From NCBI GenBank assembly GCA_024653215.1, contig JANLFU010000001.1, positions 269,492 through 333,491 on the forward strand: a stretch of 64,000 nucleotides of DNA, read 5' to 3'. The stretch comes from Candidatus Saccharicenans sp. (lineage in GTDB: Bacteria > Acidobacteriota > Aminicenantia > Aminicenantales > Saccharicenantaceae). Positions 48,908 to 55,980 of this stretch are shown piece after piece (within the stretch, counting starts at the first letter, position 1; each line of letters opens with the position of its first letter). The position numbers were made by a program, and so were the translations under genes. Under the pieces are notes generated by a model. The model ran no database searches. It was not told the origin of the DNA and saw nothing but the letters and a program-made list of their open reading frames with translations.

Positions 48908-49864
48908 TCAGGAAAGGAGTTTTAGCAACCGGTACTCGGGTTCAAACTTTAATTTCTTTGGTTGAATGGCAATTTCCAGGGGCACCAGTTCGAGGCTATC
49001 GTTCTTAAGAGAAACGCACTTATCGGTCTCACCGGCCATCAGGTATTCGACGGCGGCGTTTCCCAGCCTGGCCGCCAGAATCCGGTCGAAGGCTGTCGGC
49101 CGGCCTCCCCGCTGGATATGACCGAGAACAGCTATCCTGGTTTCCAGACCGGTCAGGCCGGTGATGGCCGCGGCCACGTCCCGGGCTGTGGCCCGTCCTT
49201 CGGCCACGATCACAATCCAGCTGACCTTGCCGCGGGCGTTTCCGGCCTCTATTTCCCGGCAGATTTCTTCCAGCGAAAAGTCCTGTTCTGGCAGCAGGAC
49301 ATCCTCGCAACCGCCGGCCAGGGCCACCTTCATGGCCAGGTAACCGCAATCGCGGCCCATGACTTCCACCACGAAAATTCTTTCCAGGCTGGTGGCCGTG
49401 TCCCTGATTTTATCCAGGGCATCGAGGGCCACGTTGACGGCCGTGTCCGCTCCCAGGCAGAAATCAACGCCGTTGACGTCATTGTCGATGGTGGCCGGGA
49501 TTCCCATCACCCTGATTCCGTACTTGGTGGCCAGCAGGTGGGCCCCGCTCAGGGAACCGTTTCCACCTATGACCACCAGGCCGTCCAGTCCGTGCTCGCG
49601 GATGGTTTTAAGGGCCTGTTGCTGGCCGGCCGCGGTCAGGAACCTTTCCGAGCGGGCCGATTTCAGAATGGTTCCACCCAGGTTGATGATGCCGGAAACC
49701 GACCGCCGGTCCAGAACCGTCAGGTTGCCATCTATGAGTCCATCGTAACCCCGGATTATCCCCAGGACTTCAAGGTTGTGGCTGGCCGCGGTTCTGACCA
49801 GGGCCCTCAGGGCCGCATTCACCCCGGCGCAATCCCTGGTGATGACTCCAATTCTTCTCAACAT
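48908..49864 (-). CDS. pfkA: 6-phosphofructokinase (ATP- or PPi-dependent PFK family)
   Basis: GGDGS-type motif (VIGGNGSLSGA), MGR motif (VMGRDCG), 318 aa. Confidence 0.85.
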   Translation of the reverse strand: MLRRIGVITRDCAGVNAALRALVRTAASHNLEVLGIIRGYDGLIDGNLTVLDRRSVSGIINLGGTILKSARSERFLTAAGQQQALKTIREHGLDGLVVIGGNGSLSGAHLLATKYGIRVMGIPATIDNDVNGVDFCLGADTAVNVALDALDKIRDTATSLERIFVVEVMGRDCGYLAMKVALAGGCEDVLLPEQDFSLEEICREIEAGNARGKVSWIVIVAEGRATARDVAAAITGLTGLETRIAVLGHIQRGGRPTAFDRILAARLGNAAVEYLMAGETDKCVSLKNDSLELVPLEIAIQPKKLKFEPEYRLLKLLS

Positions 49865-49908
49865 TGTCTGAGCCCTGTCTTAGGTTTTGATATTATCAGA
49901 GTTAACCT

Positions 49909-50235
49909 TCAGTTTAAAGACCGCCCGCAGTATGGACAGAAACGGAAACCGGGCTCCAGATGACGGCCACAAGCCGGGCAGGTTCCAGTCGCCCTTGAAT
50001 CCTGGACTTCTGGCCGGTGGGGCCAGGTATCGTGCTCTGCAATTTCCAGCCCGCAGTTTTCACAGAGCTTGACAGGTCGTCCTTTTTTGACCGGGAAAAG
50101 CGGGATGAAAAAGAGGTTGAGGTAGTGGTCAACCCTGACCAGGTACAGGGTTGACAATCCGCAGCCAGGGCAAATTCCGGGGAGCTCATCCAGCTTCTTG
50201 ATTCGCGGGCTGATACCACCTATGAAGAAAAACAT
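49909..50235 (-). CDS. Double zinc-ribbon small protein
   Basis: CPGCG...CENCG...CPACG...CPYCG: four CxxC pairs in 108 aa. Confidence 0.45.
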   Translation of the reverse strand: MFFFIGGISPRIKKLDELPGICPGCGLSTLYLVRVDHYLNLFFIPLFPVKKGRPVKLCENCGLEIAEHDTWPHRPEVQDSRATGTCPACGRHLEPGFRFCPYCGRSLN

Positions 50236-50253
50236 GTTAAGAACCCGGACCGC

Positions 50254-51741
50254 TCAATTAAGTCCCTTCATGTATCGCATGTATTCTTCCACCCTATCAG
50301 GTGGCCGGGTAGAGAGGCTGACCAGAACAACCGCCAGGAAGGACAGGATGAAGGCCGGGACCCACTCGGCCACCAGGGCCTTGAGCGATGGAATAAGATA
50401 CCAGACAATTTCGGTGAGAGAGCCGACCAGGATGCCGGCGATAACTCCTTCCTTGGTGGTCTTTTCCCAGTAAAGCGACAGCAGGACGGCCGGTCCGAAG
50501 GCCGCTCCCAGTCCTCCCCAGGCAAACAGCACCAGGTAGAAGACCAGCTTGTTGGCATAGGCCGCAAACAACAGGGCCACCACGGCCACCAGCAGGGTAA
50601 AGACACGGCTGATCAATACCAGCTTCTTTTCCGGTATCTTTTTCTGGCTGGCGATAATCTTCTGGTAGGCATCCCGGACCACGGCCGAGGAGGCCACCAG
50701 CAACTGGGAAGAAGCGGTGGACATGATGGCCGCAAAGATGGCCGCTATGGTTAACCCGAAAAGAAAGGGATGAAGGTGCTGGGAACCGAGCAGGGGATAG
50801 ACGTTTTCCGGGTCTTTCCCGGGCAGGTTGGCCACGTCCTGGTACAGGGCTCTTCCGGCCAGCCCGATGAAGATGGCCCCCCAGGCCATCAGGACGTTCC
50901 AGACAGTTCCGATGAGGCCGGTCCTGTTCAATTTTTCTGGCTCTTCGATGCTCATGTATTTATTAAGGATATGGGGATTGCCGGGTGAGCCGAAACCGAT
51001 GCCGACAAAGCCCAGCCAGGCTCCGAAGCTGATGGAGAAAGTGTCGAGGTAGCCCGGGGAAATACCGCCGAGGACGGAGAACATCCGGCCCAGGCCACCG
51101 AAATGAATAATGGCGATGACCGGAAGTATCATCAGGGCAAAGATCATGAACATGGCCTGGAGGGTATCAGTCCAGCAGACGGCCATGAATCCGCCCAGGA
51201 CCGTGTAGAAAATCACGATGGCCGCGGTTATCAGGATTCCCTGGAGCGGGGTCAGGTTGAAACTGGCCGCCAGAGATTTGCCGCCGGCATTGAACTGGGC
51301 GGCCACATAAGCCGTCATGAAAATCAGGATTGGAATCAGGGCAAACAGCCGCAGCAGGTGCCGGTTGTCTTCAAACCTTGACTCCAGGTAATCGGGAATG
51401 GTGATGTCGCCCATCTTCCCGGTGAAATAGCGCAGGCGCTTCCCCGGAAAGATGAACATGAACAGCTCGACCAGGATGTATCCGACCACGGCCCAGACGG
51501 CCGAGACCCCTCGGGTGAAGGCCATCCCGGAAACGCCGATGAGCAGCCAGGCCGAACGGCCGGAAGTCACCGCGGCCAGGGCCACCACAAAGGACTTCAT
51601 TTTTCTTCCGCCCAGGAAAAATTCTCCTATGCCGCGGGAAGAAAACCTGGCGGTGATGATTCCGACCGAAACCATCATTACCACATATAAAATAAATGCG
51701 GCCAGGGCCCAGGGATTGGTATGAATGCTCAGAGTGTTCAT
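50254..51741 (-). CDS. Sodium:solute symporter (SSS) family transporter
   Basis: 13 or more TM helices with SSS-family architecture. The ORF opens at 51912, but an ATG at 51741 (MNTLSIHTNPWALAAFILY) follows GGAGGAAAGAA and starts directly with TM1. Confidence 0.8.
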   Translation of the reverse strand: MNTLSIHTNPWALAAFILYVVMMVSVGIITARFSSRGIGEFFLGGRKMKSFVVALAAVTSGRSAWLLIGVSGMAFTRGVSAVWAVVGYILVELFMFIFPGKRLRYFTGKMGDITIPDYLESRFEDNRHLLRLFALIPILIFMTAYVAAQFNAGGKSLAASFNLTPLQGILITAAIVIFYTVLGGFMAVCWTDTLQAMFMIFALMILPVIAIIHFGGLGRMFSVLGGISPGYLDTFSISFGAWLGFVGIGFGSPGNPHILNKYMSIEEPEKLNRTGLIGTVWNVLMAWGAIFIGLAGRALYQDVANLPGKDPENVYPLLGSQHLHPFLFGLTIAAIFAAIMSTASSQLLVASSAVVRDAYQKIIASQKKIPEKKLVLISRVFTLLVAVVALLFAAYANKLVFYLVLFAWGGLGAAFGPAVLLSLYWEKTTKEGVIAGILVGSLTEIVWYLIPSLKALVAEWVPAFILSFLAVVLVSLSTRPPDRVEEYMRYMKGLN

Positions 51742-51830
51742 TTCTTTCCTCCCTTCCTGAGGCCCAGAACCAGGGCCAGGACCAGGATCAGGCCGGGCAT
51801 GATGAACAGGCCGAAGTAAGTTGACAGCAT
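51738..51830 (-). CDS. Unannotated 30-aa hydrophobic micro-protein translationally coupled to the SSS transporter; candidate small accessory subunit
   Basis: Manual translation gives MLSTYFGLFIMPGLILVLALVLGLRKGGKK. Strong RBS (GGAGGTAGCC then ATG); its TGA overlaps the transporter ATG (ATGA at 51738-51741). Confidence 0.3.
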   Translation of the reverse strand: MLSTYFGLFIMPGLILVLALVLGLRKGGKK

Positions 51831-51963
51831 GGCTACCTCCTTCAGATGGCATAAAATACCACAGCCCGGCCCGGTCTTCAATTTTCTTTATTCCCTTTAT
51901 TCTCTGGAACAATTCTTCCGGTTGTGCTATGTATAAAGTCTCAAATCCCTCATGGAGGCTCCG

Positions 51964-54102
51964 ATGACCAAGGGCAAAATGGCAATCATGGTCTTATTTA
52001 CCTGTGCTATGATTATTCTGGTGGCGGCTTCGGCCTGCCGGAAGGCGGAGGAAAAAATTATCTATCCCCAGACCAGGAAAGTGGATCAAGTTGATGATTA
52101 TTTCGGCACCAGGGTGGCCGACCCCTACCGCTGGCTGGAAGACGACAATTCCGAAGAAACCAGGAAATGGGTGGAAGAACAGAACCGGGTAACCTTCGCT
52201 TACCTGGAAAAAATTCCTTACCGTGAAAAAATTCGCGAACGTCTTAGAGACATATACAACTATCCACGCATGGGACAGCCCATCCGGGCCGGTGAGTACT
52301 ATTTCTTCTACAAGAACGATGGCCTGCAGAACCAGTCTGTAATTTACATCCAGAAGGGCCTGGACGGGCAGCCTGAAGTCTTCATCGACCCCAACCAGCT
52401 TTCGCCGGATGGAACGGTCAGGATTGGCCTGGCCGGTTTTTCTACCGATTTCCGGTACGTGGCCATCAACCGCTCCGAGGCTGGCTCTGATTGGTCGGAG
52501 CTGAGGGTGATGGAGATCGCCACCCGGAAGGAGCTTCCGGACATAATCCGGTGGGTTAAGTTTTCTGGCGCGGCCTGGTACAAAGATGGCTTTTTCTACA
52601 GCGGCTATGATCAGCCCGCCCCGGGCCAGGAACTGAGTGCTCGCAACGAGTTCCAGAAGGTTTTTTATCATAAGCTGGGAGATCCGCAGGAGAAAGATAT
52701 CCTCATCTACCAGGACCCGAAAAATCCGCTGCGATACTTCAACCTGGGAGTGACCGAGGACCAGAAGTATGCCATTCTTGATATCTCGGCCGGGACCTCC
52801 GGCAATGAACTCTACTGGAAGGACCTGACCGCCAAAAAATCTGAGTTCCAGCTCCTCATCCCCGGTTTCGACCACGACAGCGAGGTCATAGATAACCTGG
52901 GCGATAAGTTCCTGGTCAGGACCAACCTAGGGGCCGCAAATTTCCGCCTGGTCCTGGTCGACCCCAGGAACCCGTCCCCGGACAGATGGCAGGAAATCCT
53001 GCCCGAAAAACCTGAAGTCCTGGTCTCGGCCAGCATGGCTGGCGGCTATCTGTTCGCTTCCTACCTCCAGGATGCCCGGACCAGGGTTTACCAGCACCGG
53101 CCCAGCGGCGAGCTCATCAAGGAAGTGGAACTGCCGACCATCGGCACGGCCTCGGGCTTTGGCGGCTGGCGGGACGACAGGGTCATTTTTTACACCTTTC
53201 AATCCTTCAATTATCCGCCAACCATCTATAAGTATGACCTGGCCAGCGGCCAGTCTGAGGTCTTTGTCCGGCAGCAGGTAAAATTCAACCCGGAAGATTT
53301 CGAGGTCAAGCAGGTCTTCTATAACAGCAAGGATGGAACCAGGGTGCCGATGTTTATCGTCCACAAAAGGGGACTGGTTCTGGATGGCAAGAATCCGACC
53401 TGGCTGACGGCTTACGGAGGCTTTAATGTCAGCCTGACCCCGGGTTTTAACCCGACGATCTTGATCATCCTGGAAAACGGTGGAGTCTATGCCCAGCCCA
53501 ACCTGAGGGGCGGAGGCGAGTACGGAGAAAAATGGCACCGGGCCGGGATGCTGGAAAACAAGCAGAATGTCTTTGACGACTTCATAGCGGCCGCCGAGTA
53601 TCTGATCAGCGAAAAGTATACCTCGCCCAAATACCTGGCTATCTCCGGCGCTTCCAACGGCGGCTTGCTGGTGGGCGCGGTCATGACCCAGAGGCCAGAG
53701 CTTTTCGGCGTGGCCTTCCCGGCGGTGGGAGTCATGGATATGCTGCGCTACCACAAGTTTACCGTGGGCTGGGGCTGGGTGGTGGAGTACGGTTCTAGCG
53801 ACAGGGAAGATCAGTTCCGTTACCTTTTTAAGTACTCGCCGCTGCACAATATCCGGGATGGGGTCTGCTATCCGGCCACCATGGTGACCACGGCCGACCA
53901 CGACGACCGGGTGGTGCCGGCCCATTCCTTCAAGTTTGCGGCCACCCTGCAGGAAAAGCAGGCCTGCAACCGTCCGGTGCTGATCCGGATTGAAACCCGC
54001 TCCGGGCACGGCTCCAGCAACGTCACCAAGGCCATAGATGAGCTGACGGACAAGTATTCTTTCATGTTCCGGGTAATGGGCCTGAAGCCGATTTACCGTT
54101 GA
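51964..54102 (+). CDS. Prolyl oligopeptidase (S9A), secreted or lipoprotein
   Basis: Beta-propeller N-terminus plus an alpha/beta-hydrolase C-terminus with catalytic Ser in GGSNGGLL. The ORF opens at 51952; an ATG at 51964 follows GGAGG with a 5-nt spacer. Signal peptide ends AASAC. Confidence 0.88.
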   Translation: MTKGKMAIMVLFTCAMIILVAASACRKAEEKIIYPQTRKVDQVDDYFGTRVADPYRWLEDDNSEETRKWVEEQNRVTFAYLEKIPYREKIRERLRDIYNYPRMGQPIRAGEYYFFYKNDGLQNQSVIYIQKGLDGQPEVFIDPNQLSPDGTVRIGLAGFSTDFRYVAINRSEAGSDWSELRVMEIATRKELPDIIRWVKFSGAAWYKDGFFYSGYDQPAPGQELSARNEFQKVFYHKLGDPQEKDILIYQDPKNPLRYFNLGVTEDQKYAILDISAGTSGNELYWKDLTAKKSEFQLLIPGFDHDSEVIDNLGDKFLVRTNLGAANFRLVLVDPRNPSPDRWQEILPEKPEVLVSASMAGGYLFASYLQDARTRVYQHRPSGELIKEVELPTIGTASGFGGWRDDRVIFYTFQSFNYPPTIYKYDLASGQSEVFVRQQVKFNPEDFEVKQVFYNSKDGTRVPMFIVHKRGLVLDGKNPTWLTAYGGFNVSLTPGFNPTILIILENGGVYAQPNLRGGGEYGEKWHRAGMLENKQNVFDDFIAAAEYLISEKYTSPKYLAISGASNGGLLVGAVMTQRPELFGVAFPAVGVMDMLRYHKFTVGWGWVVEYGSSDREDQFRYLFKYSPLHNIRDGVCYPATMVTTADHDDRVVPAHSFKFAATLQEKQACNRPVLIRIETRSGHGSSNVTKAIDELTDKYSFMFRVMGLKPIYR

Positions 54103-54369: not shown

Positions 54370-55980
54370 TCAGTCTTTGATCTCATGCTGTTCCAGCAGG
54401 GCTCTCCATTTCTCCATCAGGTCCCGGTTGATGTCCAGAGGGGGAGTGGCCTCCGGTGGCAGGAAGGATTTATATGAATGGGTCTTCATATGTTCTTCAA
54501 ATTCGGCCTTAATCTTATTTAATGTCTCTGGACCCGTCAGCAGGTCGAGAGCGGTCAGGGCCATGGCCTTAGCCCCGGCGTTCAATCCTTTCCAGGCAAT
54601 TGAGCCGTAGACCGAAGCCACGGTTGACCAGTGATGGCCGATGGCCCCGGGGACGTTGGACGGGAAACGAACCGTGGCCGTTGGGGCCACCAGGGTCACC
54701 TCGCCCACGTCGGTGGAGCCGCCGCCGATGAATGAATCTCTCGGCTCACGAAGCGGGTTGACCTCCCTTTTCAAGCCTTTTTCTTCCGACTTAAGTTCCT
54801 GCTGCAGGGCCTGGGCAAACTCTTCTTCTTCCTTGTCCCAGACCGGCATCCCGGCCAGCTCGATGTTCTTCTGAAGGAGCTCGGCCAGGGTCCTGTTTCC
54901 GTGGAACTGGTGGGTGGCGCTCAGCACCCTGACTTCGGCCAGTTCGGTCCCGGTGGCCAGGGCCGCGGCTCTGGCGCAGTTCGCCACCCGTTCAAACATC
55001 GCTTCCAGCTCGTCGTCGGTATTCCGGACGTAATACCAGACCGAAGCTTTGTCGGGGACCACGTTGGGAGCCTGTCCGCCTTCAAGGATGATGTAATGGA
55101 GTCGATGGGCGGGGTTCAGGTGTTCCCGGAGGTAATTGGTGGCTACGTTCATCAGTTCCACCGCGTCCAGGGCGCTGCGTCCGGCCCATGGCGCCCCGGC
55201 GCTATGGGCCGTTTTTCCCCTGAAGGTAAAGATGGCGGAAATCACCGCGTTACCCGAGACGCCGTAAGCCGTGCCGAAATCGCTGGAGCTGTGGTTGTCA
55301 ATGACGGCATCCACGTCTCTGAACAGACCGGCCCGGACCATGTATGGCCGGCTGGCCAGAATTTCTTCGGCCGGCGAGCCAAAGACCTTGATCGTTCCCT
55401 TGATTCCAAATTTTTCCATGGCCTTCCTGGTGGCTATGGCCGCAGCCACCGCCGCCGTGCCCATGGTATTGTGGCCGCAGCCGTGACCCGGGGCGCCTTC
55501 TATGACCGGGTCCTTCCTGGGCACCCGTCCTTTCTGGGAAAGCATGGGCAGGGCGTCAAATTCGCCCAGGAATCCGATGACCGGCTTTCCCTCCCCGTAG
55601 CTGGCCACGAAGCAGGTCGGCATGCCGGCCAGCCCCCGCTCCACCTTGAACCCGGCCTGCTCCAGGGTATCGGCCAGAAGTTTTGAAGACTTGAACTCCT
55701 GCAGGCCCAGCTCGGCATAGGACCAGATGCGGTCGGAGATGCGGCCAAAAAATTCCAGTTGCTCTTTCTCCCCCAGCCAGTCCAGAATGAATCTCTTTTC
55801 CTTTCCGATTTTTACTGTTGCTTTTTTCTTTGCGGCCTGGGTGTTTTCCGGTCCGGCGGCAAGCCCTGGCCGGTAGCAAAGCAGGGCGGCCAGCAGCAGC
55901 AGGGGCAGCAGTCTCCAGAATCTGGTTTTGGGACTTTGGCCGGGACTGACGATTTCTTCAGGCAGCCCGGAGTGATTCAT
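54370..55980 (-). CDS. Secreted M20-family metallopeptidase/amidohydrolase (AbgB-like M20D)
   Basis: GHGCGHN metal-binding motif; signal peptide after a roughly 20-aa n-region. Confidence 0.78.
   Translation of the reverse strand: MNHSGLPEEIVSPGQSPKTRFWRLLPLLLLAALLCYRPGLAAGPENTQAAKKKATVKIGKEKRFILDWLGEKEQLEFFGRISDRIWSYAELGLQEFKSSKLLADTLEQAGFKVERGLAGMPTCFVASYGEGKPVIGFLGEFDALPMLSQKGRVPRKDPVIEGAPGHGCGHNTMGTAAVAAAIATRKAMEKFGIKGTIKVFGSPAEEILASRPYMVRAGLFRDVDAVIDNHSSSDFGTAYGVSGNAVISAIFTFRGKTAHSAGAPWAGRSALDAVELMNVATNYLREHLNPAHRLHYIILEGGQAPNVVPDKASVWYYVRNTDDELEAMFERVANCARAAALATGTELAEVRVLSATHQFHGNRTLAELLQKNIELAGMPVWDKEEEEFAQALQQELKSEEKGLKREVNPLREPRDSFIGGGSTDVGEVTLVAPTATVRFPSNVPGAIGHHWSTVASVYGSIAWKGLNAGAKAMALTALDLLTGPETLNKIKAEFEEHMKTHSYKSFLPPEATPPLDINRDLMEKWRALLEQHEIKD

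Follow-up and report, generated by a model that had tools for sequence, protein, structure and literature searches.

In the 64,000-nucleotide stretch of DNA analysed here (the window), a micro-open reading frame (micro-ORF) at 51738-51830 of the minus strand lies directly upstream of the gene for a PutP-like transporter of the sodium:solute symporter (SSS) family (50254-51741, minus strand). On the evidence of its sequence, its homologues, the selection acting on it and an AlphaFold2 model, the micro-ORF probably encodes a 30-residue, single-pass inner-membrane peptide that serves as a small accessory subunit of the transporter, and this peptide is very likely a previously undescribed small subunit. 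A single-pass micro-protein, coupled to an SSS transporter and forming a small subunit of it, had been proposed in a first-pass annotation of the same DNA, and the comparative evidence supports that reading. The window comes from a relative of Candidatus Saccharicenans (Aminicenantes), and in the genome that matches best the transporter shares 97% identity with that of the window.

The micro-ORF comprises 30 sense codons and a stop codon, with the ATG at 51830-51828 and the TGA at 51740-51738, and its predicted product is MLSTYFGLFIMPGLILVLALVLGLRKGGKK. A Shine-Dalgarno (SD) sequence, GGAGG, is located at 51836-51840 (minus strand) with a spacer of 5 nucleotides (nt) to the ATG, and GGAGG or GGGAGG is found at the same spacing in nearly all Aminicenantes-type loci (those with a transporter at least 65% identical to that of the window). 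The stop codon overlaps the start codon of the transporter in the sequence ATGA (51738-51741, minus strand), which points to translational coupling, and the SD sequence of the transporter (GGGAGG, 51748-51753, minus strand) is contained in the tail of the micro-ORF (codons K26-G27-G28). The 30-codon frame, its GGAGG and the ATGA overlap had all been described in the first-pass annotation and are all present on the minus strand.

Residues 4-24 of the peptide are hydrophobic and carry no charges. The peptide was modelled by AlphaFold2 with a 25-sequence alignment as one helix with a break just before Pro12 (H2-8 and H10-25; predicted local distance difference test (pLDDT) score, 85.7), in agreement with the single transmembrane (TM) helix predicted in the first-pass annotation. 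By size and topology (30 residues, helix 2-25) the peptide falls within the class of single-TM, transporter-associated micro-proteins, which have at most 50 residues and one TM helix.

Conservation and coding character of the micro-ORF

One genome per species was scanned, and 15 loci were obtained with a transporter 80-97% identical to that of the window. All 15 have an ORF of 29-30 codons in the same place, with an SD sequence and the same overlap. A profile of the Saccharicenans-type peptides was searched against a collection of 5.8 billion proteins and returned 18 small proteins. Two of these are divergent 32-residue proteins (MNFAEIFGLFILPAAIILLSLALYVFFKEEGE), encoded 5 nt upstream of a 500-residue SSF transporter that is only 56% identical to that of the window; the surrounding genes differ there, NDK being upstream. 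A metagenome scan with the transporter alignment yielded 80 further loci (53-93% identity). Six-frame translation of all 105 loci and the window (106 sources; 643 kb) gave 18,003 stop-to-stop segments, against which a hidden Markov model (HMM) built from 44 peptide variants was run.

Of the 104 sources that could be assessed (transporter identity 53-97%; Aminicenantes, KSB1 and unclassified lineages), 93 have a homologous ORF of 26-38 residues directly upstream of the transporter and 11 are without it; two further sources could not be assessed. The 93 matches (32-62 bits) are all immediately upstream on the transporter strand, and the next-best segment scored 9.4 bits. Since this HMM was trained on the same peptides that it finds, the search was repeated with an HMM made from the 13 Saccharicenans-type peptides only. 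All 44 micro-ORFs beside transporters of less than 60% identity then outranked the decoys (10.6-33.9 bits, versus 8.9 bits for the best decoy). The first-pass annotation had made its reading depend on conservation of the frame and of its hydrophobicity upstream of orthologous symporters in related genomes; both are kept down to a transporter identity of 53%. The genes upstream of the pair vary (NDK, GDH, a protein kinase, a sensor histidine kinase or peptidase M24) and the linkage holds. With these 93 loci and 5 further ones, in which the micro-ORF is also immediately upstream, the peptide shows the conserved operon linkage of the single-TM, transporter-associated class as well.

The ratio of nonsynonymous to synonymous substitution rates (dN/dS, by the method of Nei and Gojobori) was 0.17-0.19 in the frame of the micro-ORF, calculated for two sequence flavours separately, against 0.64-2.9 in the two alternative frames; the value for the transporter in the same genomes was 0.06. 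Variation in the micro-ORF region is concentrated at third codon positions. Because the HMM is specific and the coding-type substitutions are confined to this frame, the micro-ORF is almost certainly a conserved protein-coding gene under purifying selection. The region lies in the 5' leader of the transporter gene, where a structured RNA (a riboswitch or an attenuator) might mimic the conservation of an ORF. No Rfam family was matched at E<=1, however, folding was no better than that of shuffled sequence (z +0.62), and the consensus structure (-1.08 kcal/mol) showed essentially no covariation. These results, together with the third-position bias, leave a structured leader with practically no credence.

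Equally little weight is given to the view that the frame is not a gene at all, being either a chance ORF of the 5' leader or an out-of-frame artefact of a transporter that starts at 51912. The ORF listing also yields a 47-residue version of the micro-ORF from a TTG (51881), and the transporter frame is indeed open back to a TTG at 51912; some public calls of the transporter are extended (P0035, 555 residues). Against this view stands the coding-type conservation at 93 loci. Moreover, several relatives (L002, L012, L028, L032, L041, L058 and others) have an in-frame stop codon 0-3 nt ahead of the transporter ATG, and a start at 51912, which the first-pass annotation had named as fatal to its proposal, was excluded. 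Such an extension would also cross a conserved promoter-like element. This consists of a -35-like hexamer, TTGAAG (51876-51881, minus strand; promoter-like only), whose TTG is conserved at this place in most Saccharicenans-type loci, and, 17 nt downstream, an extended -10-like element, TGGTATTTT (51853-51861, minus strand), which is conserved in the aligned upstream regions (TG-n-TATTTT or TAATTT is kept in those of 16 sequences). Since the TTG of the 47-residue version falls within the conserved -35-like hexamer, the ATG of the 30-residue version is the credible start. The window has no alternative GTG start two codons upstream of this ATG.

Neither Pro12 nor Ile15 varies among 175 distinct peptides; the anchoring pattern used for this set demanded P..[IV], and Val is nonetheless absent at position 15. 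Phe9 (92%), Leu22 (91%), Ile16 (85%) and Leu11 (83%) are also conserved, and Ala or Ser occupies position 19 in 97%. The N-terminal two-thirds are conserved most strongly, and the conserved residues fall on one helix face (F9, L11, P12, I15, I16, A/S19 and L22), with a helical periodicity whose maximum is at 100-110 degrees (shuffle p=0.018).

Three flavours were distinguished. Flavour (a), of the Aminicenantes, reads M[LF]ST[IY]FGLFIMP...RKGGxK and has the ATGA overlap; flavour (b) reads MNFAEIFGLFILPAAIILLSL.LY.FFKEEGE and is followed by a 5-nt gap to the transporter; flavour (c) reads MISFYLIMFVLPALII....KNGRHNG and includes high-GC relatives, with an overlap of 8 nt or 1 nt. Over the 93 loci, the distance from the micro-ORF stop to the transporter start is -4 in 45, +5 in 19, -8 in 9 and -1 in 7; the 13 others span 0 to +15. 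The tail codons mirror the initiation signal of the transporter: AAGGGAGGA is read as K-G-G in flavour (a) and AAAGAAGAGGGGGAA as K-E-E-G-E in flavour (b). The flavour (c) lineages show no SD sequence before either gene; there, AATGGATGA holds the transporter ATG, and the SD-less lineages use the ATGGATGA overlap in place of an SD-like tail. Since the core of the flavour (c) peptide is the same while its overlap is SD-less, the coupling geometry is, as judged from these alignments, re-invented for a different mode of initiation around an unchanged peptide core. Loci such as L068, L075, L076, L080, L083, L097, L098 and L105 have the 8-nt overlap AATGGATGA, with the transporter ATG within the last codons of the peptide; contig names of flavour (c) suggest soda-lake and hypersaline sediments.

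The C-terminal RKGGKK had been taken in the first-pass annotation for an anchor. Because the tails match the transporter initiation signal flavour by flavour, this segment is largely the transporter SD sequence read as codons (K-G-G), and the tail is not conserved. What stands is the basic residue after the helix, which is general: at least one Lys or Arg is found just after the helix in 95% of the 175 peptides. The mean net charge is -0.27 on the N-terminal side and +0.69 on the C-terminal side, and an orientation with the N-terminus outside and the C-terminus inside fits this bias by the positive-inside rule.

The all-flavour profile was searched against the 5.8-billion-protein set (word-indexed) and matched 222 clusters at E<=1, nearly all of 28-33 residues, with "hypothetical protein" as the only name. 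When 1.84 billion representatives (50% identity level) were searched exhaustively with HMMER, 160 matches at E<=0.001 were obtained, all of 24-107 residues; the longer ones align at their C-terminal end, as expected of over-extended start calls. No fusion of the micro-peptide to the transporter or to another domain was found among the 160 matches in the 1.84 billion representatives. The peptide was also considered as a split-off N-terminal helix of the transporter and this was rejected, as no fused form occurs in that set and the inferred topologies (C-terminus of the peptide inside, N-terminus of the transporter outside) do not join. Named records with the family come from Candidatus Saccharicenans/Aminicenantes, a metagenome-assembled genome (MAG) of candidate division KSB1 and a complete 4.06-Mb chromosome labelled "bacterium" (CP070707.1). 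No Pfam or NCBIfam family was matched by the window peptide at E<=10, and divergent variants (22 against NCBIfam, 10 against Pfam) gave only sub-threshold, unrelated models (FixS, YldA, CtaJ, FtsL and CGP-CTERM).

Co-occurrence of the micro-ORF with Trp287 of the transporter

Presence of the micro-ORF coincides perfectly with a tryptophan of the transporter, Trp287 (codon at 50881-50883, minus strand), located in the helix of residues 268-299 (TM8 in PutP numbering). A second, weaker co-occurrence was found for Val85 (codon at 51487-51489, minus strand), in the helix of residues 63-97 (TM3 in PutP numbering). In the first comparison, Trp287 was present in 83 of 83 distinct transporters with the micro-ORF and was replaced by A, G, V or I in 10 of 10 without it. 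Val85 was Val in all 83 with the micro-ORF and changed in 9 of the 10 without; counted over the ingroup, it was changed in 10 of 13 without (L064, L117 and L118 keep Val). The two positions are Ala and Ala in E. coli PutP and Ala and Phe in E. coli PanF, and neither gene has such an ORF.

The rule was then used for prediction. Three previously unexamined Trp-less transporters (P0076, P0077 and P0118) had no micro-ORF upstream (best HMM score, 2.3-4.3 bits), and two unexamined Trp-containing controls had one (23.6 and 41.3 bits), so that the prediction was right in five of five. The final tally covers 104 distinct transporters. The micro-ORF and Trp occur together in 88 of them and are both missing from 15 (13 of the ingroup, E. 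coli PutP and PanF), and none is mixed; L079 could not be scored, since its upstream sequence is missing. The co-occurrence of Trp287 and the micro-ORF is, as a pattern in the sequences compared, a new observation of this work.

A neighbour-joining tree was rooted with PanF, and both characters required the same 7 parsimony changes (6-8 in 25 bootstraps), with the Trp-less, ORF-less lineages scattered over the tree. As reconstructed on these trees, the micro-ORF and Trp287 are gained and lost together, in 6-8 independent transitions. The assessable loci without the ORF number 11, and one group of six among them has a GDH-upstream synteny that is common to sister loci with the ORF. These sister groups (L073, L077, L085, L090, L093 and L095 versus L083, L087, L089 and L098), both with the gene for glutamate dehydrogenase (GDH) as direct upstream neighbour of the transporter gene, are a clean natural experiment for dependence on the micro-ORF. 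One group keeps the micro-ORF in a 100-nt gap; the other lost it, and there Trp287 changed to Gly or Val and Val85 to Ala or Thr.

An ORF in this position could act in cis only, its translation delivering ribosomes to the transporter start or unmasking it and its peptide having no function. At every locus the stop and start codons overlap or are no more than 15 nt apart, and the ribosome-binding site of the transporter shapes the tail, as expected of such a leader ORF. RNAalifold also gave a weak pairing of codons 17-19 (CCUGGCC) with the transporter SD sequence. This 7-bp pairing (about 51762-51770 with 51748-51754, minus strand; alignment A6, columns 71-79 with 97-103) could mask the SD sequence until the micro-ORF is translated; neither its energy (-1.08 kcal/mol) nor its covariation is strong enough to serve as evidence, and RNA structure in the region is not significant (z +0.62). 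A functionless leader peptide does not account for purifying selection at the amino-acid level in this frame only. Nor does it account for invariant residues and a hydrophobic helix of TM length that persist across differing codon usage, with or without an SD sequence, and it gives no reason for a Trp in a transporter helix to vanish with each loss of the ORF. A purely cis-acting role is therefore judged quite improbable. Coupling and a function of the peptide are compatible, and coupling is surely also at work. The co-occurrence with Trp287 argues for a trans-acting peptide that packs on the transporter rather than for a mere leader ORF.

The peptide might, alternatively, share the operon without binding the transporter, for example as a stress-related or lipid-interacting peptide or as the partner of another protein. 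Many small membrane proteins of bacteria share a transcript with unrelated genes, and some lineages run the transporter without the peptide. This reading is nevertheless unlikely. The micro-ORF was found immediately upstream of this transporter subfamily in 98 of 98 located loci, whatever the other neighbours, and never elsewhere in the loci searched, and the co-occurrence with Trp287 is at the level of a single residue. It is highly probable, from these comparisons, that the peptide functions with the transporter.

The AlphaFold2 model of the transporter places Trp287 and Val85 in these two helices, and both residues probably lie in the outer half of their helix. TM8 and TM3 of PutP correspond by homology to core TM7 and TM2 of the LeuT fold, which are adjacent helices of the four-helix bundle. 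The conserved N-terminal half of a peptide with its N-terminus outside would lie in the outer half of the membrane, level with Trp287 and Val85. A contact of the peptide at Trp287 is somewhat favoured.

The following sequence of events is proposed for an accessory subunit. Both genes would be transcribed from the promoter-like element, and coupled translation would give matched synthesis of the two products. Since the 30-mer is shorter than the exit tunnel of the ribosome, it could be freed before it emerges and would then insert post-translationally, with the N-terminus outside and the C-terminus inside. The conserved, Pro-kinked face of the peptide would pack on the presumably lipid-exposed outer half of helix 268-299 (at Trp287) and on the neighbouring helix of Val85, and the packed peptide would stabilize the transporter or tune its conformational cycle. 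Lineages that lost the peptide would have exchanged the orphaned, exposed Trp for a small residue (A, G, S, V or I).

Several points weigh against this proposal. About 12% of the homologous transporters do without the peptide, so that it is not indispensable for the fold. The trees were made by neighbour-joining only, and all sources are metagenome-derived genomes. A mutual-information scan with average product correction (APC), run on peptide against transporter columns (81 pairs), gave no localized signal and no enriched helix and was uninformative. The contact at Trp287 and Val85 is proposed from the co-occurrence and from general knowledge of the LeuT fold. In flavour (b), the KEEGE tail carries a net negative charge, and the proposed topology is less secure there. 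Finally, a simple sigma-70 scan of 49800-52100 found no promoter, and TTGAAG-17-TGGTATTTT matches at only 8 of 12 positions, below the threshold.

Known small subunits of transporters

The nearest parallels are small membrane proteins of other SSS transporters. YhdT (DUF997) of E. coli is likewise encoded directly upstream of a transporter of the PutP/PanF branch, PanF, and the two genes overlap by 11 nt and are therefore translationally coupled. YhdT differs in its length of 80 residues and in having two predicted TM helices, and it has no sequence relation to the micro-peptide (hhalign with a 44-sequence family alignment, probability 0.3%; no match to PF06196). The DUF4212 (TIGR03647) proteins, of about 80-90 residues, are also hydrophobic and encoded upstream of an SSS large subunit (of the VC_2705 type). 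Their partners form another SSS subfamily (TIGR03648 scores the window transporter at 110 bits, cutoff 320.75), and the micro-peptide had no match to PF13937 or TIGR03647 in the Pfam and NCBIfam scans. YjcH (DUF485) is a small inner-membrane protein co-transcribed with the SSS permease ActP; it differs in having about 100 residues and two TM helices, and ActP models score the window transporter at 72-86 bits. The micro-peptide gave no Pfam match to DUF485 (PF04341), YjcH itself being compared through the family model only. The first-pass annotation had mentioned DUF4212-type partners of SSS transporters, none recognized at 30 residues; by HMM match the peptide is unrelated to DUF4212, DUF485 and DUF997. 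The small subunits of the DUF485 and DUF4212 families are required for their SSS transporters according to cofitness data, and YjcH, being cofit with ActP, was proposed as a transporter component (Price et al., 10.1101/072470).

MAP17 (PDZK1IP1), a small membrane protein, is bound as an accessory to a human transporter of the SSS fold, SGLT2 (SLC5, the SSS family of eukaryotes). It is needed for robust activity and expression of SGLT2 and is dispensable for SGLT1 (PMC12605011). This dispensability in a paralogue parallels the lineage-specific presence of the micro-peptide, and the solved structures most closely related to the window transporter include some of SGLT2 (e.g., 7vsi). MAP17 differs in being eukaryotic, longer and unrelated in sequence, and its gene stands apart instead of sharing an operon with that of its partner. 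It is reported to bind at the periphery near TM13, unlike the TM3/TM8 site inferred for the micro-peptide. On a bolder and tentative version of the present proposal, the peptide might be an obligate regulatory subunit on the mobile four-helix bundle (Trp287 in core TM7, Val85 in core TM2) and not on a static periphery of the MAP17 type, and might set the rate or direction of alternating access or the substrate range in an SSS subfamily, uncharacterized before, that has Gly-Arg where PutP has Asp55-Met56; this is possible but rather doubtful. If true, a peptide that docks on the bundle would be the first modulator of an SSS transporter in bacteria to consist of a single helix, and would provide a natural handle on the movement of the bundle.

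KdpF, AcrZ, CydX and MgtS resemble the micro-peptide in having at most 50 residues and a single TM helix and in being, usually, operon partners of the complex that they join; the first-pass annotation had drawn the analogy with this class. They differ in their partners (a P-type ATPase, an RND pump, cytochrome bd and PitA/MgtA) and share no sequence similarity with it. A 2025 review of bacterial small membrane proteins has none for SSS symporters (PMC12648545), and no described partner of this kind for PutP-like transporters was found in the literature searched. For the NCBI product name "symporter small accessory protein", no paper using it in that literature and no NCBIfam match were found, and the name was not used as support. 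By these comparisons, the micro-peptide family is a new family, and a new architecture within a known type of component, with one helix in place of two and a third of the size. The annotated E. coli ymdG ORF of the putP leader (MKNSVAEH, 8 codons, about 160 nt upstream of putP; L115 21-47, corresponding to 1079120-1079146 of E. coli K-12 NC_000913.3) was considered as a relative and rejected as probably unrelated, since its length does not suffice for a TM helix and putP is not adjacent to it.

Small membrane subunits of secondary transporters are easily missed and can be essential, as with DUF4212, DUF485 and MAP17. The present family comprises at least 160 clusters at 50% identity in Aminicenantes, KSB1 and other uncultured lineages, and is unnamed and without a Pfam or NCBIfam model. 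Heterologous expression of these "sodium/proline symporters" without the 93-nt upstream ORF may give inactive or atypical protein. The Trp287 rule offers a one-residue predictor of the need for a partner and a precise target for mutagenesis, and suggests that residue-level phylogenetic profiling can tie a micro-protein to its partner without experiment.

The transporter, public gene calls and neighbouring genes

The transporter (495 residues) is a member of the SSS family by PF00474 (E 4.5e-84; 283 bits, cutoff 22.8) and TIGR00813 (272 bits, cutoff 184). It falls below the equivalog cutoffs for PutP (TIGR02121, 400 bits versus 515.5; NF011948, 304 versus 955) and PanF (TIGR02119, 214 bits versus 328), and is 37% identical to E. 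coli PutP and 29% identical to E. coli PanF. In the AlphaFold2 model (pLDDT 89.3) there are 13 TM helices, and the breaks at residues 60-62 and 252-255 correspond to those of core TM1 and TM6 of the LeuT fold. Ser340 and Thr341 of PutP, the pair of the Na2 site, are kept as Ser341 and Thr342. Gly61-Arg62-Ser63 (51553-51561, minus strand) is invariant in the subfamily and stands, in a pairwise alignment, opposite Asp55-Met56-Ser57 of PutP; Asp55 is the essential TM2 residue of E. coli PutP known from the mutagenesis literature. Since Asp55-Met56 is replaced by Gly61-Arg62, substrate and ion coupling cannot be taken over from PutP; with an Arg where the first core helix is unwound, either of them may differ. 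The "proline symporter" names in public records are, on these scores and alignments, homology guesses.

Homology and the neighbouring peptidase genes point to proline or another amino acid as the probable substrate, with some uncertainty because of Gly61-Arg62. A gene for an S9 prolyl oligopeptidase (51952-54102, plus strand) is divergent to the transporter operon, and one for an M20 peptidase (54370-55980, minus strand) lies beside it. In CP070707.1 (L112 1128-2312), genes for an M24 peptidase and a PTR2 peptide transporter are found upstream of the homologous pair. Such surroundings, typical of peptide and proline catabolism, fit a role in amino-acid uptake.

The micro-ORF had been called unannotated in the first-pass annotation, which holds in part: the family is unnamed and often uncalled, and calls of the ORF do exist. 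The closest genome, that of Candidatus Saccharicenans subterraneus, has a 47-residue 'hypothetical protein OP8BY_1726' (RFT16548.1) with a TTG start inside the -35-like box, and unnamed 30-residue calls are present in Logan, JGI and NCBI-derived sets. Public calls for this type of locus are inconsistent, and include, besides the 47-residue TTG call, over-extended calls of 43-107 residues and a transporter stretched to 555 residues (P0035). The micro-ORF is uncalled in the KSB1 MAG, the complete chromosome CP070707.1 and a Logan contig. Micro-ORF loci with such inconsistencies are 51738-51881 of the window (minus strand), L110 2345-2497, L112 2374-2520 and L119 1390-1497.

Downstream, beginning 18 nt past the transporter stop codon, a gene that may belong to the same transcript (49909-50235, minus strand) encodes a 108-residue protein with a double zinc ribbon (Zn_ribbon_15) and a hydrophobic stretch. 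It is followed by a gene for phosphofructokinase (48908-49864).

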